DNA of 61,958 nt, the filler included. It is 16 parts of 16 records of this genome, joined end to end, with 100 filler letters (N's around TTAATTAATTAA, not from the genome) between each part and the next. Parts side by side here need not be neighbours in the genome. Positions count along the whole stretch, not along the records: positions 4,137 to 7,479 come from SRR7504441_137608; 15 more parts are not named here. One strand, given 5' to 3'. Positions 4,137 through 58,100 of the stretch are shown here, one piece after another. The notes beneath the pieces are model-generated. The model had not been told where the DNA came from. It saw nothing but the letters and a program-made list of their open reading frames with translations, and did not search any database. Position numbers and translations under genes: made by a program. Each line of letters starts with the position of its first letter. The stretch's first letter is position 1.

Positions 4137-4485
4137 TACGTTGAGTAACTCATCTGCAGCCGGTCCTCGCCGCCGTCGAATGCAATTCCCTGATTTCCTG
4201 GACCAGCGTGATTCCGATCAGCTTCATCGCAGCTTCATCGGGCCACCTGGCGGGCTCGTCTGGTCTCGCCCGGCCCTGGCTGCTCGCTCGGCGCTCACCG
4301 GAGTAGGCTCATGCAGCTGAATCAGCTAGTGTCACACCGAGTCCCTTCGGTCGCAAGCTGACCGGCGGGGGTTACAGCATTTAGCCGCTCTCAATGCCGA
4401 TTTGGCCACCCGTCAAGCTGCGGCCGCCAACACCGAGATCAACCAACGACTCGACCAGCTCGCGCCGATCAATGAGGCGCCTACG

Positions 4486-7460
4486 ATGCCCGGCACGACC
4501 AGCCCACCCGCTGAGGTGAGAGTGCAATTAGTTGATTGTAGAACGACTGATATGCGCGGGCGGTGCACAGAAGAGTACCACTGTTGGACGCACGAAAGTA
4601 CCGCCCGCCAGCCAGGTTCATCGCCGCATCTCCGTCGCACTGTCGCACTGTCGAGCCGCTCCCTAATTCCCGTGTGTAGGTGCCTACAATTGCAGCCACA
4701 GCTGAGAAATTGGTTGCACTTCGAGTAACCAAGTCGGTGCTCGTGACCGACTTTGATGGGACGCTGACTGATGACGATGGAACTGTCCCAGCAAGTGTGC
4801 ACACTCGATTGAAAGAGCTCAAACAGGCGGGAGTATCCATTGTGGTTTCGACTGGTCGCTCTGTCGCATGGGGCCAAATGATGGAAGCGACCTGGCCAGT
4901 GGACGCCGTCATTGCTGAGAACGGCGCTTACATTATTCATGGTGGAGTGACAGAAGCTCAGTTTCAGCCGGATGTGGAACGCCAGACTCTCATCGATAAA
5001 ATCTCCGAGATGGGCCTCACCTTGGCATCCGATACTGGAGGTCGTGGATGTGATGTGGCAATATCCCTCCACAAACAGGATGACGCACCTCCAGAACTTC
5101 ATGATTGGCTGTTATTGCATGGATGGGTGTTTACATTTGGCAAAGTTTGTGGTGGCATGCACATGAACATGTGGAAAGGGCATCATTCCAAGGCTCGCAC
5201 AGTTTCGAAGTATCTGACTATGATTGGCTGCACACCCGAGGACGCTGTTTGTGTTGGAGATTCGCCAAATGACCGCGGCCTTTTCGAACTCATTCCAGCC
5301 AGCTTTGGGGTTGCAGGAGTATGCCAGTTTGGTGATCTACGGGATGCAGTTGCAACCATCACGCAGGGTGATGGAGCCGACGGATGGTTGGAAGCCACTG
5401 CTCTTGCGTTTCAGCTTGAGGCATATGCAACATTGGTGACTAATGATTTCTATGTCACTGGAGCTGTGGCACTGGCCAAGTCCCTGGCGGCTACTGGTAC
5501 CAACCGCCCTCTTATTTGCCTCACAGGAAGCGGAGTCACGTCTACTCAGGCTCTCACAGACGTTGGGGTGACTGTGATTCAGGTCGATGCGCTTCCACTT
5601 TCCTGTGAGTTTAAGGAGCGCCACAACCTAGAGGAGATACAAAAGTCCCACCCCTACAACTCCAAAGCACTGGGTGGCAAGAAGCCAAACTGCTTCAAGA
5701 ATCTCGACAACTTCATGAAACTTCGACTATGGCAACAGACCAGATTCTCAAAGATCGTCTACCTTGATGCAGACACTGTGGTGGTCCAACAGATAGACGA
5801 GCTCTTTGATTACCCAGAATTTTCTTGTTCCCACAACATGCACGTAGACTTTCACCAGATGAACAAGATGAATTCTGGAGTCTTTGTGATGAAGCCCTCT
5901 GCCCAAACCTTTGATCAAATGATGCATGTGCTGCAGACTTCCGATCGGTTATATCATCGTACTGACCAAACTTTTCTGGAAGAGTTCTATGCTGAAAGGA
6001 CGCATGCTCTCGACTTCAAGTACAACGCCTTGCAGTATTTGTATCTCACTGCTCCAAATGCCTGGGACTGGTCAAGAATCAAAGTAGTACACTACATCAT
6101 GCAAAAGCCCTGGGACAGTGCCAAACCTGCGAGACCAGACCTCCAACCTCTCTGGCAACTGTGGCAGAGCGCATATCAATGTGATGTGCGGGGTTCCGAC
6201 AATTCGACGAATCTGATTCCGACACAGGATGGTGGGAATGAATCAGCCAGACTTCGACCAGACGAGCACCAGCACGGCCGAGGTTCTGACGCCAAACGCA
6301 TCATTGTTGTAGGTGGCGATGGTTTCTGTGGGTGGCCTTTAGCATTGCACATGTCACATCTTGGTCACGAAGTTGTCATTGTCGACAACTTATCGCGGCG
6401 CAGCATTGACCAAGAGCTTGGGGTGGGTTCCTTGACTCCCATTGCTGAGATCCATGAGCGTCTAGAAACATGGAATGCAGTGACTGGATTGACCATTCGA
6501 TTCGAACAGATTGATGTTGCCAAAGAGTACATCAAATTCAAAGATTTGGTAGAAACCTTCAGCCCAACCACCATTGTGCATTTTGGCGAGCAACGCTCTG
6601 CACCCTACTCGATGAAGAGTACCAAAACTCGGCAATACACCGTTGATAACAATGTCAACTCCACGCACAACATCCTGAACGCCATTCTAGAAACAAATAG
6701 GGAGATCCACCTCGTGCACTTGGGCACAATGGGTGTCTATGGTTATGGTGCAGTGCCTAACACCATCATCCCTGAGGGGTATGTGAAAGTTCAAATGCAG
6801 AACAGGGAGGGTGATTGGAATGAATGTGAGATATTGCATCCTGCATATCCGGGAAGTGTCTATCACACCACCAAGGTTTTGGATGCGTCGCTGCTAGCTT
6901 TCTATTCGAAAAACTACGACCTGGCAATCACGGACCTGCACCAAGGCATCATCTGGGGGCTGCACACAGCGGAAACAAAACTTCACCCCAAACTGATCAA
7001 CCGGCTTGACTACGACAGCGATTATGGTACGGTACTCAACCGCTTTGTCATCCAAGCGGCATGTGGAGTTCCTTTAACTGTCTACGGCACTGGAGGCCAG
7101 ACACGAGCATTTATTCACATCCAAAACAGCGTGCAATGCCTTGAGTTGGCCATCATGAACCCGCCTTCGCCGTCCGACCGTGTCAAGATCTTCAATCAAA
7201 TGACTGAAACTAGGCGGGTCTCAGATCTGGCAAAAATCATCGGATCATTGTTCCCAAACACGACAGTACAGCATCTCGAGAACCCGCGAAGGGAATTGGT
7301 TGAAAATGACCTCCAAGTCCACAACGATCAGTTCTTAGATCTTGGGCTCAAGCCAATCTATTTGGACGACGAACAAATGAGCGAAATTTACAATGCCGTG
7401 AAGGAGTATACAAAGATTGTTGATGAGAAGTACATGCTCCCAATGAGCTTTTGGAAGTGA
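4486..7460 (+). CDS. sqdB: Trifunctional fusion: HAD-IIB phosphatase + SqdD-like GT8 glycosyltransferase + SqdB UDP-sulfoquinovose synthase
   Basis: One uninterrupted ORF 4680-7460. HAD motifs TDFDGT, STGRS, ENGA, SK, GDSPND (about 4730-5410); GT8 AYATLVTND, LDNFMKLRLW, YLDAD, NSGVFV, TDQTFL, HY..QKPW (about 5418-6180); SqdB GGDGFCGWP, EQRSAPYSM, HLGTMGVYG, YHTTK, DLHQGIIWG, DYGTVLNRF (about 6294-7460). Predicted phase-0 intron 4516-4679 (GTGAG...TAG) joins an upstream ATG at 4486; true start uncertain. Confidence 0.92.
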
Positions 7461-7691
7461 TGACATTCCCCATCAAGCCNNNNNNNNNNNNNNNNNNNNN
7501 NNNNNNNNNNNNNNNNNNNNNNNTTAATTAATTAANNNNNNNNNNNNNNNNNNNNNNNNNNNNNNNNNNNNNNNNNNNNCTCGAGCTCCCGCGGCAGCTC
7601 CCACTGAGCCAGACCACCCTGCTCGCGGACTCGCGGCTTGTTCCTCAGTCGCTGTTCCGGCCATGGTTCGTCCGTTGGCCCTCTCTGTGCC

Positions 7692-47834: not shown

Positions 47835-48491
47835 GGAGCCCAGGTCCTTTCTTTCCGCCCCATGAGCGTGCTGAGTGCGCCGGTGGATGCAGCGTGCCGT
47901 CTGCCGAGGCCGTCGTGACTGTCGCCCACCCGCCGTGCACCGCCCCGTTCGGGCCCTGGAGACCGCACCTCTACGGTGCCCGGCCCCGGCGCTGGCAGTG
48001 ATTCGTCCCAGGCACAAAGCCGGCGTTCGATGAGTATTTTGTCCGCCAATCCTACCCCATGGGGCTCAACTTCCGGGGCGCCAACGCCGACTACCTCGGC
48101 GACTATCGGGTCACCCATCTGAACCGCCTGAACGCCCACGGGGTGGCGCACCTGCCGCGGTCCGAGGACTTCGGCCCGTTCGGGAGCCCGTACTATGGCA
48201 CTGGCCCGGTTCCGGACCCAGGCAGGTTCCAGGTCCCGGCGGGGGCCTACCCCACCCGGTATGCCAACCGGTCGTCCCCCCCCCAATGATGTAGATGGAG
48301 GCTTTGGATCGAGCTCCTTACCACCGAATATGCAACAAATAAACAGGCAACTACAGGCTCATTGTAAAACTTGTATCACTTGAACCTATATTAATCGTGC
48401 ATTGATCAACAGTGCAGTCCCTAACACGCCCCCCACTCTATCGGCGTCTATGTAATAGCCATCGTCCAATCATCAAGGACTCCGGAAAACG

Positions 48492-49014
48492 CTAACCGAC
48501 AATAATGTTGGCAATATTTCGGTGTTCAATCCTTGTTCGGGTCACGCTTGGGTGGCTCGAGCATGTCCTGGACCGTCCGGATCGCCTGGAACGCAGCTCA
48601 GTCGCAGCTCGGCACCGACTTGGTACCTTGTTGTTCGCTTCGAGCTGCTCGACTAGGTCGGAGTAAAGCTTGGCCGCCTCGGGACTAACACCCTCCACAT
48701 CCGATGGCAGCGCAACACCAACCGTTGCTCCCTGGCCCTCCCGCTCAAGCCAGCCAGCCGGAGCTGCCACCCCGGACGGCTTGGGCGTTGGGGCTTTGGG
48801 CGCGGCCTTCTTCTTTTTGGAGGTCATCGTATCCTTTGAGTCCCATATGCTTGCCGATTGGTCGTTCATTGCCGTGTCCATGAACTTCTCGTACTCCTTC
48901 ATGATCGACTCCTGGTTCTTAGCCATGTGCTCGGGGAGCAGCTGGACAGGGACCGACTTGCCCGACTGGTGCGCCACGTACATCAGGAACTCTTCCCACT
49001 CGATCTCGCCAGAC
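48492..49014 (-). CDS. Hypothetical protein fragment (5' partial)
   Basis: GC-rich open frame running from the contig end; no recognisable motif. Confidence 0.4.
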
Positions 49015-49114
49015 NNNNNNNNNNNNNNNNNNNNNNNNNNNNNNNNNNNNNNNNNNNNTTAATTAATTAANNNNNNNNNNNNNNNNNNNNNNNNNNNNNN
49101 NNNNNNNNNNNNNN

Positions 49115-49144
49115 TAAAGTACGTTAATATATTAACGTACTTTA
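49115..49144. repeat. Perfect 30-nt palindrome at the contig start
   Basis: TAAAGTACGTTAATA-TATTAACGTACTTTA. Confidence 0.85.
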
Positions 49145-49599
49145 ATACGTTCATGTAAAAAAACATATTGAGAAAGTTTATTTTAATAATGTCACATGTA
49201 AATATAAAGAACTACTAAAAGAGGATTTTGAAAACCTTTCTTTATTTCTTAGTGAAGAAAAAAGGTTACTTTTTTGTTTAGATGATAAAGTTCGGATAAA
49301 TCTTGATAAACCTACTGAAAATAAAGATCATTTTATTATATATGAAGTTAAACTTCGAAAACGTAAAAGATATTATTTATTCATAAAAAGACTAGAAGGT
49401 CTAGAATAACAATTTACAAGTAAAACAGTAACTTATAGCTACACTATTAGGCGTTAATTCATTCAAACAAGGATACTTTTGTATTTTATTGGTTTTATAG
49501 TCATATTAAAAAATGAGCGAAAGAGAACTTGTAATAATTTCTATTGTCTCTTCTTTAAACCTAATATATTATATTGTGCAGCGGGCAATTCTTTTCTAA

Positions 49600-50315
49600 T
49601 AACTTCTTTATTATATTCAATAAAACTTGTTCTATAGATGAAGAATAATAGTTAGTATCATTATCAATTAGTTTTGTTATAGCATACCCTGAAAATCTCT
49701 TTAAGGTATCATTTGAAATCCTTTATCATATTTATAGCTCCGCCCCTAAAATTACTATACTTTGATAAGTATTTGTAATTGAGTTTGGCCTAATAGCTGG
49801 AGTATTATCGGCAATATTTATAATAGGAACTACCATAGCTGCAGTAATTTTGGGACAGTTAGAATATCCCTGAATTATTTGTTTTTTACAGGTGTGTTTC
49901 TATAAAAAATTATGTGAAACTCTGCCAAACAAGTTAATACTATTCCAGCCATTATCAAACAATAACCAAAAAAAAGAAAAAAACCTATATCGTCAGGGGC
50001 ACGTTCTAATGAATAAAGACTTACTTTTGATATTTCAGTCATAGAATATGCAACACTAAGCGTTCCAAGGACATAAAGCCCGCGACAAAAATATGTTAAA
50101 TATATGAGATCTTTATCGTCAGACCAATGATTTTCGATAATTTCACGATCATTCTTGAAGGCAGCAATTCTGGCCTTACCATATTCAGTATTTTTCAAAA
50201 AATGAAAAATTCTGAAAGAGATTACAGAGATGATAAATTTATATTGTTCAAAAAAGACAAATAGGACAATTAACATCAAACTAATTACATTTATGTAATT
50301 GGATAGTACTAACAA
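49600..50315 (-). pseudogene. Apparently frameshifted hydrophobic mitochondrial ORF
   Basis: 146-aa hydrophobic ORF stops after RNTPVKNK in an A-rich tract; protein-like text continues in another frame (IIQGYSNCPKITAAMVVP...) with further stops. Confidence 0.4.
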
Positions 50316-50574
50316 AACCTTTTTAACTATTTCTAAAATTTTTTTTATTCAAAGCATTCATTCTTATACTTTTATACATTTAGTACGAATATGTTTGGTT
50401 TTCATATTGAAGGGTTTATTATTTTGAAGTACCCTTCTACTGATTTACTTTTATTTATACATTAAAGTTATTTTAAATAATGTCTCCTACACGTTTTATG
50501 AGTAATTAGTTGCCTTAACGTGCTTAAAAGTGACCTAAATATCATTATATTCTACTAGTAAAAACTAATTGTTG

Positions 50575-50604
50575 TAAATACTAACCTTTCTAGGTTAGTA
50601 TTTA
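50575..50604 (-). terminator. 13-bp stem hairpin just downstream of rns (terminator or processing signal)
   Basis: TAAATACTAACCT-ttct-AGGTTAGTATTTA, about 20 nt beyond the rRNA 3' end. Confidence 0.55.
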
Positions 50605-50622
50605 TCTTATGTGTTTTTCCAT

Positions 50623-52220
<1,598 letters not shown>

Positions 52221-52565
52221 ATATTTAAATAGCATATAAGATACTATTATTCTGTTATAATGTCCTAAAATAATTTGTTCCTAAGAACTGATGTTTGATT
52301 ACCCTATATTCTTGACGGGTGTGAAATAATAAAAAGTATTCCAATAAGAAAAATCAACGCCCGCTAATTTTGTTTTAGGCGATTGTTCATAGTAAAATTA
52401 TAGTAATTTACTTTATTTTTTAAGTATTCTTTCTATTCTTTTTAACTTATTTATCATAATAGAATTTTGATTAGTTGAAGTGTCTACTCTCCATTTGGGC
52501 CAAAAACAAATAACTAATATAATCCAAAATGTTTCGACCTAACTAATTAGTGGAATTTCCTTAAA

Positions 52566-53189
52566 CTACTTCTTTCTAGATAATTCTTCTATTTGTTTGG
52601 ATAATTCTTCATTTTTTTCTGTTAAAAAATTAACCTTTTCTGTTAGAGTTCCTATTTCGTTTATTAAGGCCTCTATTTGCGAATTAAGTGAGTTATTATC
52701 AAGCACAGCCGTCTGTTTTATAAGGCTAAGTGACTTATTTATTGCAATAAACATCTCTGATGTTCTAGTGGCCCAGTCGGTAACTAATCCCACTGTTCTT
52801 AGATTTTCTAAAACAATACAATCTATATAGAAAATATAAACAAGTATCACCGAAGCATATAAAAAGAAAAATAAGGCAGTCTTATCCGTAATGATGAAAA
52901 GTGAGGCTAGTCTTGGATTTTCCACAAAAACTCCTTCTTTTTGAAATAAATTCTGAAGCAGTTTGACATTAATTAAAGAAAATAAGGTAAATAACCAAAA
53001 ACAGAAAATTAGATAAATTTCATTTCCGGACCCAACAGTAACCTCAATAAAGAGATCTAAAGAATTTGTTAATGAATTCCATGATGAATCCCAAAAATTC
53101 TCTTCGCTCGCACTAAATAAACTTGTTTTATTTTCATTGACTACGATTTGGGTTTGTTGACCCTGGTTTTCTAAGAGTATGTCTGCCAT
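52566..53189 (-). CDS. Mitochondrial ORF207, two hydrophobic segments plus C-terminal coiled coil
   Basis: Intact ATG-started 207-aa ORF in AT-rich DNA; Trp is coded by TGG; no similarity I recognise. Confidence 0.6.
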   Translation of the reverse strand: MADILLENQGQQTQIVVNENKTSLFSASEENFWDSSWNSLTNSLDLFIEVTVGSGNEIYLIFCFWLFTLFSLINVKLLQNLFQKEGVFVENPRLASLFIITDKTALFFFLYASVILVYIFYIDCIVLENLRTVGLVTDWATRTSEMFIAINKSLSLIKQTAVLDNNSLNSQIEALINEIGTLTEKVNFLTEKNEELSKQIEELSRKK

Positions 53190-53422
53190 TTTGTCTTCAT
53201 GAATTCTTTTTTGAAGTGCGAGTTCATGAGCGTGCTGTAATTTTTACAGCATTTTCCATACCTTTTTTTGCACAATAAGCCCCTAAGATACCACTACCTA
53301 CAGTCATGGTGTGTTTTATATATTTTGATCCAAACATGCTTTTTAAAGCTTTTTTTAAATTGTTATTATTTCTTTGTTGTTTCACTATATATGTATAAGA
53401 AATAAAAAAGAAATAGATGGAA

Positions 53423-53496
53423 CGGGAAAGACGAGATTCGAACTCGCGACGTCTAGCGTGACAGGCTAGCACTCTAACCAACTGAGTTACTTCCCC
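53423..53496 (-). tRNA. trnD: tRNA-Asp(GUC)
   Basis: GGGGAAGTAACTCAGTTGGTTAGAG...CT-GTC-AC...GTTCGAATC...TTTCCCG cloverleaf. Confidence 0.95.
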
Positions 53497-53510
53497 TTAT
53501 TATTATTTTA

Positions 53511-53583
53511 TATCCCTTACGGGACTTGAACCCGTGTTGTCCGCGTGAAAGGCGAGCATCCTAACCAACTAGATGAAAGGGAC
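53511..53583 (-). tRNA. trnE: tRNA-Glu(UUC)
   Basis: GTCCCTTTCATCTAGTTGGTTAGGA...CT-TTC-AC...GGTTCAAGTCC...AAGGGATA. Confidence 0.95.
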
Positions 53584-53643
53584 ACGTTTATGCTTGTATA
53601 GGAATTAAACTTTATATAAATCTTATTTTATTAAATCTAATTG

Positions 53644-53717
53644 TACATTCGATAGGATTCGAACCTATGACCGATAGCTTAGAAGGCTATTGCTCTATCC
53701 TGCTGAGCTACGAACGC
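53644..53717 (-). tRNA. trnR: tRNA-Arg(UCU)
   Basis: GCGTTCGTAGCTCAGCAGGATAGAGC...CT-TCT-AA...GGTTCGAATCC...CGAATGTA. Confidence 0.95.
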
Positions 53718-53882
53718 ATTTGTAAATAGCAAAGTTTATGCAATGATCCTTTTTCATATCTACATTTTACTTTTCAAACTAAAAGAATTCTAAGAAAAAG
53801 CGTATGTCTGGACTTTGTATAGATATACAACTAATAAAATAGTGTACTTAACCTAGTAAAAAAATATGGTTTTTATCCAAAG

Positions 53883-53955
53883 TAGGCTTAGTAGGACTCG
53901 AACCTACGCTCTAACCCTTATGAGGGGCCTGTTTTACCAACTAAACTATAAGCCC
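53883..53955 (-). tRNA. trnI: tRNA with CAU anticodon, probably tRNA-Ile(CAU, lysidine type)
   Basis: GGGCTTATAGTTTAGTTGGT...CT-CAT-AA...GTAGGTTCGAGTCCTACTAAGCCTA; the GGGCTTATAGTTTA start matches mitochondrial trnI(cau) as I recall it. Confidence 0.85.
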
Positions 53956-55126
53956 TTGTTTGTTTAAGTACCTTTTATGTCACTGCTAATTCTTTATCAT
54001 TTGTTTCCTGTATATAAGAAATAAATTTAACTTTTTAATATATATAAAATATACTTACATATATGAATAAGATATCGTTAAAAATCTGAATTATGGCGTA
54101 TATCTTTGATAAGAAAAACGTTAAACCAATTTTAAATGAATTGGGTATAAATATAAAAAAAGATGTTATCTTTCAAATTCTTATAATGGATAAAAAACAA
54201 GAGAAAATCTTTTTCAAATAATTTGTAAAAATCTATAAGGAACTCTTGTTTAAAGGTGACTTTATACAATTAACGTCAAAGAATCAACGTTGTTGGCATG
54301 GACGACTTACGTAACATCGTATACATAAACGTATATAGGGTTTCGTCGAATTGGTACGATACACTTTCAATATAGAAAAAGATTATCGTATTACAAAATA
54401 TTCTTTAAGAATATATCAAAATCAATATTATAAAAATAAATCTTTAGTGTATAAATGGAAACTTTTTTACGTTTCTTTAAAAGGTTTTGAGGTTATATCT
54501 AAGCTATTATAAATTTATTTATTCTTATAGGGAACAAATAATAAAAAGTTAGCGTGTATATAAGAAGATACTTAAGTTTAGAGCTTACAGCGCACTGCGG
54601 GGTCCCTTAAAGTTTTGCGTAAAAAGTTTTCTTTAATATTGTGAAATCAACTTTTACAAAACCTCAGGAAAATTAATAAAGAAACCAAAATATGCTTATA
54701 CATTCTACAAAGCAATAATTACTATATCGGTGTGCAAGTCATTCATTCCATGATGAATAGAAATAATACATGAAAGTGATACGTCGAAATATAGTAAAGT
54801 CAAATAAGATCAAACAAAAAGTANNNNNNNNNNNNNNNNNNNNNNNNNNNNNNNNNNNNNNNNNNNNTTAATTAATTAANNNNNNNNNNNNNNNNNNNNN
54901 NNNNNNNNNNNNNNNNNNNNNNNTAAGCGGTAAAAAAGCCCCAAATTAGCTGCCGCAAAGGGTCAATGCTCATGAGATACTGTAGCGCATCTGCTACGAT
55001 TTTTTAAGATCTAGATCCGGCTGACTTTTTTTCAAACTAAGTCTCCAAGCACAGTATAACTGAAAGTATCACTAAAAGAATCCGCACAATCCAGTTCGAT
55101 GCTGAGGTGGCTTTAGAGGTGGCTCT

Positions 55127-58100
55127 TCAGAATGCCGTAGTCCGATTGTTGCTGTTGACCTGATCCCACCATGAGAGCAAGACCAATGGTTGTATGGGTG
55201 CCTGTCCGAGGGTGTTTGTAGTCACAACAACATTGTTAGGCATATCTAGCACATCCTCTCCAGGGGCTGCTGTCCCCTCATCCTCCTCGTCCTCTGTGTT
55301 TCTCGGCGACCACCCCTACACCAGATAAGATAGGTTACGGCTGTTGACCTAGAGCCTAGCCTGGGGCGCAGCTCACCTGGCCTGTTTCAGTCCGCTTCAA
55401 GCCCATTGACCTCCTTCCCAACCCGTCCCGACCATCTGGTCTGACCCCCACCATCCGGCCCAACCCAGCCACGGCGTCTGCCATTGACTGCTGGAACTTA
55501 CTGCTTATATAACTGGCAGTCCCCTCTGTGTGTGCTGGATCTAGCTCCGACGCGCGGAGGAACTGGTCATCGCCAATCTTTTCGCGAAACAGCCCACGTA
55601 GCGCATCATTCACATTCTTGGGTGCCCACACAATCGGCTCTTTGGTCAGCTCAAGTGACTTAGCCAGAAGGAAGTCCTGGTCGCGGTAGAAGCCGTGGAA
55701 GATTGTATACCCGCCGATCACCTCGATCCGAACACACTCGTTGAAGGCGTGACGCAGGGCTATGTCTGGGATGACCAGGCTCTGCAGGATATTGTCCGGG
55801 TCAATCAACTCCTCAAACGCTAAGTTAAACTGCAAGAAGCGATCAGCTATCTCCATTTCAAAACCGAGCTGAGCTTGTTCCTCCTCGCTGAGCGCAGGAC
55901 CAAAGCAGCGCGATTTGCCTGTCTTGAGCGTCACAAGGTCCGGGTTCTGCCAGACAGCATCGAGCATGCTGCCAAACGCCTCCCACTTGAATACCTTGGC
56001 ATACTCGACCGCTTTAGGCCTCACCAATCGGATGGCCTCCTCGATGGCCTGTGCCGATTGCTGGTGCAGCTCGAGGCAGTTATCCTTCAGGTTGATCCTG
56101 TATTGCACAAGACTGTCCCAGATGTATTTATAATTGTTCATCAGGAAGAACGCTTTCATGGCTAGTGAGCTGTAGCCAGATCGGGCAGCCCTTTCAAAGT
56201 TAATGAGCACCCCCATTACTAATTTAGTCAGGATGTCGCCCCAGCTGACACTCTCAGCATCATTCCCATACTCCTGCTTCAGCACCGCATTGTGTTTATC
56301 CAGAAGCCACAAAATCATCTCGGAGTAGCCAAAACTCAATTCGCGCAGAAAGCTCATTGCAAGCGGTCCGACTGGCTGGAGTGTCCCGTTTTCTGGTGGC
56401 GGGTGGTCATCCTTCTTTGCAAACTTGCGGTCCAATTTCAGAAATCTCTTGATGAGCTTCTTGACCACACTAACAACTAGCCCATGCCACTCGTTTAGAA
56501 GCTTCTGCTCTGGATCCCCGTGCAGCGCGTTGTACGCGTCGGCTGCATGCTCAAGCGGCACATGCAGCACCTCGTGCCACTGGCCGGTCATATCCCTGAT
56601 CTGCCCGAGCATGTCCAGCCCTATCAATTGCGAGTTGGGCGACGTCTTGGGCGCCTGCCCGCCAATCAACCACACGATGCCAGCCGAATGCTTGCTTGCA
56701 AGATAATGCTTTTGCTCTTCTCGACAAATTTGTGAAACTCTGGCCCGACCTGCCATTTTGTCCCACCCAGGCGGCCCAAGCAGCCACGCACCACCATCGG
56801 GAACACTGCGCGGAAGAGCGGGATGCCGAGCAGCTTGACCAGCTCGCGCTCCTTGGCAAAGCAGCTGCCCCGCAGACTGACCAATCAGGCATGCGCATGC
56901 CCACCGGAGCATCAGGTGCAAGTACACAGTGTAGCCGTAGCTGCCTGGCCGATACAGCAGCGCCTCGATGCTCCCGTCCAGGTCCTTGTCCTTCAGGCAA
57001 ATCTTTTCTATCAGAGCGCACTGGTTTGTAAACCCAATTGCCTGCCGACCTCAGCTCAGCACCAACAGCCACCCTCGGCTTACCCGTTTCTTGGCGAATT
57101 CGAGCGGCCGGAGCGTTTTGAGCTGGAGCATCAGCTGGATCTGCCAGCGGTGGTTGACCCGGTTAAGCATCAGTGGCAATCACCAGGTGCATTATGTTCT
57201 TGTACGCGTACTGATCGTAAGTAAGCTTCTCGACCAGCAGGTCAAGCAGCCCGTCCACCTGCCGAGCATCACACACGAGCTCCCAGCCGGCTGCCTTGCT
57301 GTCTATCAGCCTATCCTGGTTGGCCGCCAGTGCGTTGTGCAGCAGCAGCTCAAACATCTCGACCATCTCCCGAGTGGGTGCCTGGCACAGGATCTTGTCG
57401 AGCGAGTCCACAAACCTGTTGAACAGGGCCTCCTCCACACGGGCGGTGTTCTGATTGATCTTATCAAGCTTGTCCTGCCCCAGTCTCGTGGGTTGGCTCG
57501 ACGGTGGGTCGCGCCTGCGCCCCACGCATCTGATGCTCCTCGTCCTGCTCCTCAAAGAATTGCTTTGAGTCGAGCATCTGCAGCCCACTCACCCAGCCCT
57601 GGCTGCAAAATCTGCCTGCTGCAACCGCTCGATCCAGTCGGACGTGATCCCGTGCTCAGAGGCTATTGTTCCGCTGGTCGGGTCCAGTACCTGCGCCGCC
57701 GCTGGACCGGCAGCAGCCTGGGCCGGCCGCCTCCTCCACCGCGGTGAACTTGCGCAACACACACTCAGCCTGCTCGACCTACCACCGGCTCCCGCCCGGC
57801 CAGCTGGGCAGGCACTGTGCTGTGTATATTGGCGTGCACCAGCCGGAGTGCGTTACTTTCACCCTTCATCTTGCGCACCAGCGCGGAGAGAGAATCGAAC
57901 ACGTCGTCAACCATGTCGATCTGCATGATAGCCTCTGCAGTACTCGCCTGTCCTGCGTCGCCCCAAGGTCTCGGCCAGCAGCGCGCCTTGGCAGCCGCCA
58001 TAGACTGGCGCACGAACGACAGCCGCTCGCCGCCGCGCCCAGTGCGTGCCTGCTGGTAGCCGATCGAGCCATTATCACCTGGGGCTAGGGCGGTCGCACC

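Follow-up and report, generated by a model that had tools for sequence, protein, structure and literature searches.

A HAD-IIB phosphatase, an SqdD-type GT8 transferase and SqdB fused in one polypeptide: a candidate sulfoquinovose-glycoside enzyme of a probable marine protist

The stretch of DNA analysed here (the window, positions 1-61958) joins 16 contigs of 3.2-5.7 kb each through 15 artificial linkers (N44-TTAATTAATTAA-N44), and one of these contigs carries a gene whose product unites an N-terminal HAD-IIB phosphatase domain, a central GT8 glycosyltransferase domain of the SqdD type and a C-terminal SqdB domain, the synthase of UDP-sulfoquinovose (UDP-SQ). We interpret this gene as encoding a trifunctional enzyme of a marine protist that would build glycosides of sulfoquinovose (SQ), an abundant sulfur sugar, transferring it before removing a phosphate; as the best explanation overall, this reading has in our estimate a probability of about 0.55. 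A functional enzyme with SqdB, SqdD and phosphatase activities, in which the HAD domain serves the SqdD step, is very likely, and the chances that transfer to a phosphorylated acceptor comes first, followed by dephosphorylation, are about even. The argument starts from the identities of the three domains, their intact catalytic residues, the orthology of the GT8 domain to SqdD, the fusion across independent assemblies and the repeated linkage of SqdD with HAD hydrolases; from these we infer the catalytic activities, acceptor, step order and product fate of the protein. The gene is laid out as follows.

4680..7460, + strand: open reading frame for HAD-IIB, SqdD-type GT8 and SqdB, 926 codons plus stop; first codon GTG, with TAG immediately before it
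4731..5408, + strand: HAD-IIB phosphatase domain, residues 18-243, from Pfam, NCBIfam, alignment, AlphaFold (AF2) model and fold matches
5418..6179, + strand: SqdD-type GT8 domain, residues 247-500; DxD 363-365, NSGV 398-401, DQ 429-430, H471, KPW 476-478
5592..5732, + strand: SqdD-specific insert relative to glycogenin, residues 305-351, with LPLSCEF (305-311) at its start
6180..6293, + strand: linker between GT8 and SqdB, residues 501-538, poorly conserved and of variable length among homologues
6294..7457, + strand: SqdB/SQD1 UDP-sulfoquinovose synthase domain, residues 539-926; GGDGFCG 545-551, GTMG 682-685, YHTTK 728-732

The 926-codon frame contains no internal stop or frameshift and every catalytic motif in it is intact; each HAD-IIB, GT8 and SqdB motif quoted in an initial annotation of this DNA was found. 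At the N terminus, Pfam Hydrolase_3 (HAD) matches residues 21-111 and a second stretch above its cut-off, and the HAD-SF-IIB model TIGR01484 of NCBIfam exceeds its cut-off of 41.8 bits with a score of 56.7. The motif strings DFDGT (24-28), TGRS (58-61) and GDSPND (193-198) are present, and the residues of HAD motifs I (D24/D26), II (T58), III (K171) and IV (D194/D198) are invariant in all five aligned HAD domains. The AF2 model of this domain, at a pLDDT of 89.9, superposes on HAD-IIB structures with TMq values of 0.58-0.78.

Judged by its sequence, the central domain is an orthologue of SqdD, not a glycogenin or a galactinol synthase. Pfam Glyco_transf_8 covers residues 253-480 with 61.8 bits, above the cut-off, and glycogenin-1, the closest solved GT8 structure, aligns at E 2e-35 with DxD, NSGVF, DQ and H..KPW matched. 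The SqdD-style insert described in the initial annotation is borne out: it precedes the K-L-R-L-W strand and holds about 16 residues more than glycogenin, with conserved H, K and W, and nine of its positions (F311, H315, P325, K335, P336, N344, F345, K347 and W351) each reach a conservation of at least 97% in a set of 91 SqdD-type sequences. The same level of conservation is seen for D363/D365, H471 and K476-W478 and, in all, for 42 residues, with bacterial genes of sqdBDC order included in the set; a further motif, LFDYPEF, occupies residues 375-381. The closest stand-alone relatives of residues 246-500 are GT8 proteins of 260-300 aa from Rhizobium, Neorhizobium, Hoeflea, Jannaschia and metagenome-assembled genomes (MAGs) of Pseudomonadales, 38-46% identical over their full length with E values down to 2.6e-67, whereas galactinol synthase is 28% identical (E 1.9e-13). 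A maximum-likelihood tree splits 37 SqdD-type rows from two plant galactinol-synthase-like outgroups with support of 99/96, the outgroup rows filling 21-24% of the columns; the eukaryotic fusions fall together (80/95) and the bacteria form a group of their own (83/83).

The genomic surroundings of bacterial relatives point the same way. A prokaryote scan with one genome per species returned at least 561 SqdD relatives, and in the best 80, on which all bacterial locus counts below are based, an SqdB homologue lies in the flanks of 76, usually directly upstream, while a short-chain dehydrogenase/reductase (SDR) resembling SqdC is found in 77, usually directly downstream. This order matches the sqdB-sqdD-sqdC order described for Rhodobacter and Sinorhizobium, and together with the tree it upholds the SqdD affinity that the initial annotation had proposed for the GT8 domain. 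One could instead suppose that the GT8 domain acts on a protein or a glycan, as the closeness of glycogenin among solved structures might suggest, but the 42 residues shared with bacterial sqdBDC-order genes speak against such a target, as do the soluble three-carbon (C3) glycoside products of sqdBDC reported for Sinorhizobium meliloti in the parts of a 2022 preprint that deal with this route (bioRxiv 10.1101/2022.08.18.504050). We regard this alternative, taken jointly with that of a HAD domain unrelated to the acceptor (below), as unlikely.

The sqdB-sqdD-sqdC arrangement was also observed in Pseudomonadales, other gammaproteobacterial MAGs and Geminicoccaceae (L002, L005, L006, L010, L014, L021 and others). 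The sequence comparison shows SqdD-type loci beyond the two alphaproteobacterial orders, in gammaproteobacterial MAGs and Chloroflexota; the passages of the 2022 preprint limit the SqdD route to Hyphomicrobiales and Rhodobacterales (bioRxiv 10.1101/2022.08.18.504050). Two further proteins, P0009 (SqdB with SqdD) and P0216 (SqdD with the start of an SDR), are GC-rich gene calls on contigs of 55 kb and 183 kb; they run into apparently out-of-frame translation and may each represent neighbouring genes that the gene caller ran together.

The C-terminal domain matches Pfam Epimerase over residues 541-828 (68 bits, above the cut-off) and aligns end to end with the solved Arabidopsis SQD1 (1i24) at E 5e-99. 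GGDGFCG pairs with GGDGYCG of SQD1 at the NAD site (GxxGxxG), and GTMG, within the fuller motif HLGTMG (680-685), and YHTTK pair with GTMG and YHLSK of 1i24. We take the catalytic residues of SQD1 to be Thr and Tyr-His-x-x-Lys. A quick tree of 47 rows places the domain inside the SqdB family, P0005 (a Cafeteria homologue, below) having been omitted because its gene model lacks one internal segment. The SqdB domains of the fusions and SqdB proteins from giant-virus contigs form a 14-row clade with a support of 100 in the SH-like approximate likelihood-ratio test (SH-aLRT), whose viral members come from L206, from two GVMAG contigs and from four further contigs of IMG/VR. The SqdB proteins encoded beside sqdD in alpha- and gammaproteobacteria fall outside it, and a neighbouring clade contains Galdieria (87).

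The viral SqdB genes of two GVMAG contigs (L081, L082) and four other IMG/VR contigs (L083-L086) are stand-alone, with 54-59% identity to the fusion's domain, and no GT8 or HAD-IIB gene was found within 10 kb of SqdB on any of the six. A scan of IMG/VR with the full alignment kept 80 loci, all of which match the SqdB part only, with GT8 or HAD-IIB matches in the flanks of 0 of 80. SqdB is joined to another partner elsewhere: most of the 120 listed SqdB relatives of 509-1621 aa (P0011, P0013-P0121) combine it with a PAPS/APS reductase in a protein of about 670 aa, and the named carriers are mostly Actinobacteria (Nocardioides, Isoptericola). By their domain content, these proteins would couple sulfite supply to UDP-SQ synthesis.

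The triple fusion recurs in independent data. A search of about 5.8 billion proteins returned homologues collinear across all three domains (P0002, P0004, P0005 and P0006), with the incomplete P0003 and P0007 collinear over the parts present. P0002, of 980 aa, aligns with 99% of the query at 56% identity; P0004 has 1199 aa, P0006 1185 aa, and P0005, a 1137-aa 'hypothetical protein', belongs to Cafeteria roenbergensis. Cluster look-up places the fusion in four separate Cafeteria assemblies and, for the other clusters, on several independent contigs, three of them for P0004. Four environmental clusters in addition to Cafeteria share the domain order. The fusion is rare, with six clusters at 90% identity in the whole search space. 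Among public sequencing runs, 20 of 24 listed contain part of the gene, and 17 of these 20 are RNA libraries, many polyA-selected, from 12 studies. Contig pieces were available from 4 runs of 4 studies; 20 of the 21 pieces are at least 99% identical to the gene and jointly cover 4762-7478, the odd one being an unrelated 35-base match.

These data bear directly on whether the three domains are joined in this contig only, through an assembly chimera or in a pseudogene. The contig is short (3343 bases), it offers no in-frame ATG start, and none of the pieces from the 4 runs spans the linker between 6233 and 6257. Pieces nevertheless enter the linker from either side, 5909-6233 from GT8 and 6257-6446 and 6261-6411 into SqdB, and 5184-5431 crosses the HAD/GT8 border from HAD motif IV to the first GT8 residues, so that of the two junctions singled out in the initial annotation (about 5410 and 6180-6294) the first is bridged and the second is approached from both sides. 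With the same domain order in P0002 and its cluster members, P0004, the four Cafeteria assemblies, P0006 and P0386, and with a frame of 926 codons free of stops and frameshifts whose catalytic motifs are all intact, a chimera or pseudogene is extremely improbable, and we rejected it; the fusion is real, in line with the original proposal.

The host is probably eukaryotic, a marine protist. The nearest named relative of the fusion is that of Cafeteria, a bicosoecid stramenopile, described in the relevant passages of a recent preprint as a heterotrophic flagellate (bioRxiv 10.64898/2026.09.28.754671). Exo70, a protein kinase, kringle/C-type lectin and PAN domains are encoded elsewhere in the window, on contigs distinct from that of the fusion; since these contigs seem to belong to a binned assembly, the support they lend to a eukaryotic host is indirect. 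The initial annotation had assigned the gene to a eukaryote outright; these contigs, the pieces of at least 99% identity from polyA-selected marine metatranscriptomes and the Cafeteria relationship favour that assignment and stop short of proof.

Evidence that a phosphatase belongs to the SqdD step comes from proteins and loci beyond the fusion. An exhaustive HMMER search of the HAD plus GT8 half against 1.84 billion cluster representatives gave 13 proteins at E 1e-30 or better, and four of the 13 cover both domains: P0005, standing for the triple fusions, and P0219, P0220 and P0221, which are AT-rich two-domain HAD-IIB plus SqdD proteins of 480-516 aa, P0130 being a fourth of this kind. P0219 is encoded on the metagenome contigs L161 and L206 (about 54 kb, GC 20-27%), where a separate SqdB, 60% identical to the fusion's domain, lies 1.3 kb from its gene. 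The row of genes at 9992-13932 of L206 (2741-6681 of L161) encodes HAD-IIB plus SqdD, a 92-aa ion channel, an OpuAC-like solute-binding protein and SqdB; next come genes for an NT5C nucleotidase and a TLC-domain protein, and a D5/AEP primase-helicase, a dual-specificity phosphatase and a class II aminoacyl-tRNA synthetase are encoded nearby. The nearest Atlas clusters of the primase-helicase are from Nucleocytoviricota, and by its gene content the contig is most likely that of a giant virus. A scan of IMG/VR with the HAD plus GT8 alignment found zero relatives. Among the matches listed by a metagenome scan with the HAD alignment, generic HAD-IIB genes predominated and the known triple fusions were missing; two of the 80 loci kept, L161 and L206, were relevant.

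Two other HAD subfamilies are attached to SqdD. Of the 80 bacterial loci, ten, all from Chloroflexota (10 of 15 loci from this phylum, 0 of 65 from other bacteria), carry a HAD-IA gene as the next gene after sqdD, in the same orientation, and an SqdC-like gene comes after it in nine of the ten. The Chloroflexota HAD-IA proteins match Pfam HAD_2 and TIGR01509 (above cut-off), and the models that score best are those of small sugar- or polyol-phosphate phosphatases, for example hexitol phosphatase HxpB and beta-PGM family hydrolases. P0222 (593 aa) combines an SqdD-type GT8 with a HAD-IIA-like domain, matched by Pfam Hydrolase_6 at 47.5 bits and by TIGR01460 at a sub-cut-off 37 bits. With HAD-IIB, HAD-IA and HAD-IIA-like hydrolases found on one transferase in three lineages, the comparison supports a phosphatase reaction as part of the SqdD step, and the suggestion in the initial annotation that the fused phosphatase might be a 'Rosetta stone' for the SqdD route has gained ground. 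HAD-linked SqdD may have a single origin: in the best tree a branch sets its nine rows apart from all others, with weak support (78/48). At nine positions 11 HAD-linked SqdD sequences depart consistently from the 80 bacterial ones; these differences may reflect lineage history and for that reason do not inform on whether the acceptor is dihydroxyacetone phosphate (DHAP) or glycerol-3-phosphate. In the Chloroflexota loci with the order sqdD, HAD-IA, SqdC-like (L004, L009, L017, L019, L024, L030, L039, L041, L042 and L078), SqdB is encoded on the opposite side or the opposite strand; SqdB genes downstream of sqdD on the same strand score about 300 bits against the fusion's domain, and those of L009 and L042 458-481.

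The HAD domain might instead have nothing to do with the acceptor, acting upstream on a sugar phosphate, as a mutase or a phosphatase, to sustain the supply of UDP-glucose, or having a regulatory role. The HAD-IIB group does include phosphomannomutases, which appear as weak fold matches of the model at ranks 42 and 47, but the three HAD subfamilies are tied to SqdD rather than to SqdB, the viral HAD is fused to SqdD with SqdB kept separate, and no linked nucleotidyltransferase accompanies these genes. This is the other half of the unlikely alternative introduced above, and we retain a HAD domain that serves the SqdD step.

The bacterial route supplies the biochemical frame for such a step. In the sections of the 2022 preprint on this pathway, SqdB makes UDP-SQ, which accumulates in sqdD mutants, and SQ-dihydroxyacetone builds up in sqdC mutants; expression of sqdBD yields a compound taken as SQ-dihydroxyacetone, and sqdBDC yields SQ-glycerol, which SqdA acylates (bioRxiv 10.1101/2022.08.18.504050). 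The sqdBDC genes function in E. coli with no dedicated phosphatase, and the SqdD acceptor, unresolved since the 1990s according to the same sections, is stated as 'dihydroxyacetone or dihydroxyacetone phosphate'. The literature background given in the initial annotation agrees with the Introduction of this preprint. Where a locus has no linked phosphatase gene, a housekeeping phosphatase presumably does the job, a view consistent with sqdBDC functioning in E. coli.

In the scheme we favour, the C-terminal SqdB domain would make UDP-SQ, and the central SqdD-type GT8 domain, a retaining transferase, would pass SQ to a three-carbon acceptor. This acceptor would be phosphorylated, DHAP being most likely, as in the bacterial route, and glycerol-3-phosphate the alternative; the N-terminal HAD-IIB domain would then strip the phosphate and thereby make the transfer irreversible. 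The released product would be SQ-dihydroxyacetone, convertible to SQ-glycerol by an unlinked SqdC-like reductase, or SQ-glycerol directly, and it could be acylated to the sulfolipid sulfoquinovosyl diacylglycerol (SQDG) or kept as a soluble sulfonate. Since Chloroflexota keep a HAD gene and SqdC together, the phosphatase is no substitute for the reductase there, and the fusion may accordingly still depend on a reductase from another gene if its acceptor is not glycerol-3-phosphate. The 'one-protein pathway' of the initial annotation is not established, an SqdC-type reductase being retained in 77 of the 80 bacterial sqdD loci, those of Chloroflexota with a HAD gene among them. Two small records searched in this connection yielded nothing. 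As to the fate of the product, one SQDG species was induced in CroV-infected cultures of Cafeteria burkhardae, a non-photosynthetic host, according to the portions of the preprint that treat these cultures (bioRxiv 10.64898/2026.09.28.754671), and this is compatible with a lipid fate.

The two steps could also run in reverse, with the HAD domain dephosphorylating DHAP or glycerol-3-phosphate first and SqdD then glycosylating free dihydroxyacetone or glycerol; the fusion would in that case keep a reactive, scarce acceptor near the transferase. Every linkage described above fits this order equally well. The top fold matches of the HAD model are the small-cap archaeal HAD-IIB proteins 1wr8 (TMq 0.78) and 1kyt (0.76), deposited as phosphoglycolate phosphatase, with sucrose-phosphate, trehalose-6-phosphate and mannosylglycerate-phosphate (MpgP) phosphatases ranking lower (0.58-0.68), and the Chloroflexota HAD-IA proteins score best against models of phosphatases for small sugar or polyol phosphates. 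GT8 relatives such as galactinol synthase take free polyols. The published scheme likewise draws free dihydroxyacetone as the acceptor in the legend of its Fig. 1 (bioRxiv 10.1101/2022.08.18.504050). Transfer before dephosphorylation is favoured, for its part, by the conserved basic residues H315, K335 and K347 of the insert, which could bind a phosphate, or equally a sulfonate. The known glycoside pathways that contain a phosphatase, those to sucrose, trehalose, glucosylglycerol and mannosylglycerate, glycosylate a phosphorylated acceptor first. By modelling and analogy, the small-cap fold and the free-polyol acceptors of the nearest GT8 enzymes thus lean towards phosphatase first, and general pathway logic leans towards transfer first; we hold the reverse order to be a possible but less probable alternative.

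Several points weigh against the trifunctional enzyme with transfer before dephosphorylation as we read it. For the small-cap HAD fold, as modelled, a small C3 phosphate would be at least as good a substrate as a glycoside phosphate, and the galactinol synthases that use a free polyol acceptor are the nearest GT8 enzymes outside SqdD. What speaks for a phosphatase step is linkage, which fits both step orders equally. A linked phosphatase is absent from 70 of the 80 bacterial sqd loci and, because sqdBDC also functions in E. coli, a dedicated phosphatase is dispensable there. The UDP-sulfoquinovose synthase model NF041015 (NCBIfam) reaches 333.2 bits over residues 539-916, under its equivalog cut-off of 575. 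No SqdC-like open reading frame was found in the 62-kb window, and none was found in the examined stretches of the viral contigs L161 and L206. The start codon of the fusion gene is ambiguous (GTG 4680 or an upstream exon), and the SQDG of the Cafeteria cultures may derive from bacterial prey.

The ambiguity of the start concerns the following features.

4137..7479, no strand: gene-bearing contig, 3343 bases, with artificial N44-TTAATTAATTAA-N44 linkers at both ends; the gene is alone on it
4486..4515, + strand: candidate first exon (ATG plus 9 codons), implied by the start of the initial annotation and in frame only if spliced
4516..4679, + strand: candidate GT..AG intron of 164 bases, phase 0, read from the sequence as GAG/GTGAGA ... 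TGTGTAG/GTG

The initial annotation had begun the gene at ATG 4486, a start that does not hold as given: this ATG is in a frame other than that of the 926 codons, which open at GTG 4680 unless the candidate intron is spliced. The first in-frame Met is residue 67, and starting there would remove HAD motif I; since, in addition, a TAG abuts GTG 4680, the start is either that GTG or an upstream exon. No RNA contig among the pieces from the 4 runs covers 4137-4761, the region of the candidate exon and intron.

Because the fusion gene lies alone on its own 3343-base contig, genes elsewhere in the window carry no information on linkage. GC along the window spans 31% (about 48000-56000) to 63%, and the bin may combine several sources. 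The first contig (108-4034, + strand) holds a single open frame that runs off both contig ends and includes a leucine-carboxyl-methyltransferase-like domain, an acyl carrier protein (ACP), a ketosynthase and an HMG-CoA synthase; its domain set resembles that of a polyketide module joined to a beta-branching enzyme.

A phosphatase step at SqdD offers a hypothesis for the missing chemistry of the second SQDG route, backed by the three HAD linkages, and the survey places the SqdD route in eukaryotes, a giant virus, Gammaproteobacteria and Chloroflexota. If expressed, one protein of 926 residues could turn UDP-glucose, sulfite and a triose phosphate into SQ glycosides, and the finding may explain the SQDG signal of virus-infected Cafeteria cultures described in part of the preprint cited above (bioRxiv 10.64898/2026.09.28.754671). 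More tentatively, and with doubts that outweigh our confidence, we suggest that Cafeteria, uncultured non-photosynthetic relatives and at least one giant virus make SQ glycosides through a self-contained, plastid-free HAD-SqdD-SqdB module. Were this so, heterotrophic protists and virus-infected cells would be unrecognised marine sources of SQ, SQ-glycerol or SQDG, and the fused phosphatase would point to a phosphorylated triose as the long-sought acceptor of SqdD, rewriting the bacterial sqdBDC scheme.

In the main texts of open-access articles in PubMed Central and bioRxiv we found no paper describing a HAD-SqdD-SqdB fusion, a eukaryotic SqdD or a viral SqdB, and in the same collections none on SQ-glycerol as an osmolyte; a 2026 review (PMC13436972) leaves SqdD unmentioned in its passages on SQDG synthesis. 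The statement that no such fusion had been described fits this literature, but the proteins themselves are already in public databases under generic names, labelled 'hypothetical protein' or 'UDP-sulfoquinovose synthase'. What is new is the arrangement, the giant-virus HAD-IIB plus SqdD gene beside a separate SqdB, the Chloroflexota HAD-IA and P0222; the component families are all known.

Among known systems, the alphaproteobacterial pathway of SQ-glycerol acylation (the sqdB-sqdD-sqdC operon plus sqdA of Rhodobacter sphaeroides and Sinorhizobium meliloti) shares with the fusion both SqdB and a GT8 SqdD, 42-46% identical, with its family-specific insert; it passes through a soluble C3 glycoside intermediate, and the same kind would be expected here. 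It differs in that the fusion is one polypeptide that includes a HAD-IIB phosphatase, whereas the proteobacterial operons have none, in that the fusion has no SqdC domain and its host is probably eukaryotic, and in that its SqdB falls, in the quick tree, into the eukaryote and giant-virus clade and not with the sqdBDC-linked SqdB of proteobacteria. With the plant, algal and cyanobacterial route of SQD1/SqdB and SQD2/SqdX the fusion has the UDP-SQ synthase step in common (E 5e-99 to Arabidopsis SQD1); SQD2/SqdX, however, is a lipid glycosyltransferase acting on diacylglycerol, whereas the fusion has a GT8 of the SqdD type, whose acceptor would be a soluble C3 compound. Glycogenin and galactinol synthase share the GT-A fold, and DxD, NSGVF, DQ and H..KPW align with those of the fusion, but SqdD-type proteins carry the insert of about 16 residues that sets them apart from glycogenin, identity to galactinol synthase is 28%, and bacterial SqdD genes adjoin sqdB.

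Synthase/phosphatase pairs that act through glycoside phosphates are known for sucrose (SPS/SPP), trehalose (TPS/TPP), glucosylglycerol (GgpS/GgpP) and mannosylglycerate (MPGS/MPGP). The fusion follows their logic, in which a HAD phosphatase is paired with, or fused to, a transferase that uses a nucleotide sugar, and structures of SPP, trehalose-6-phosphate phosphatase and MpgP are among the fold matches of its HAD domain (TMq 0.58-0.68). In contrast to these pairs, the transferase of the fusion is a GT8, the donor would be a sulfonated sugar, and a third enzyme that makes the donor is attached; the pairs use a phosphorylated acceptor, for which the fusion offers linkage as the indication. Lastly, the actinobacterial PAPS/APS reductase-SqdB fusions of about 670 aa also join SqdB to an enzyme of a neighbouring step, in their case sulfite supply; their partner acts upstream of SqdB in the pathway, and they contain neither a GT8 nor a HAD domain.

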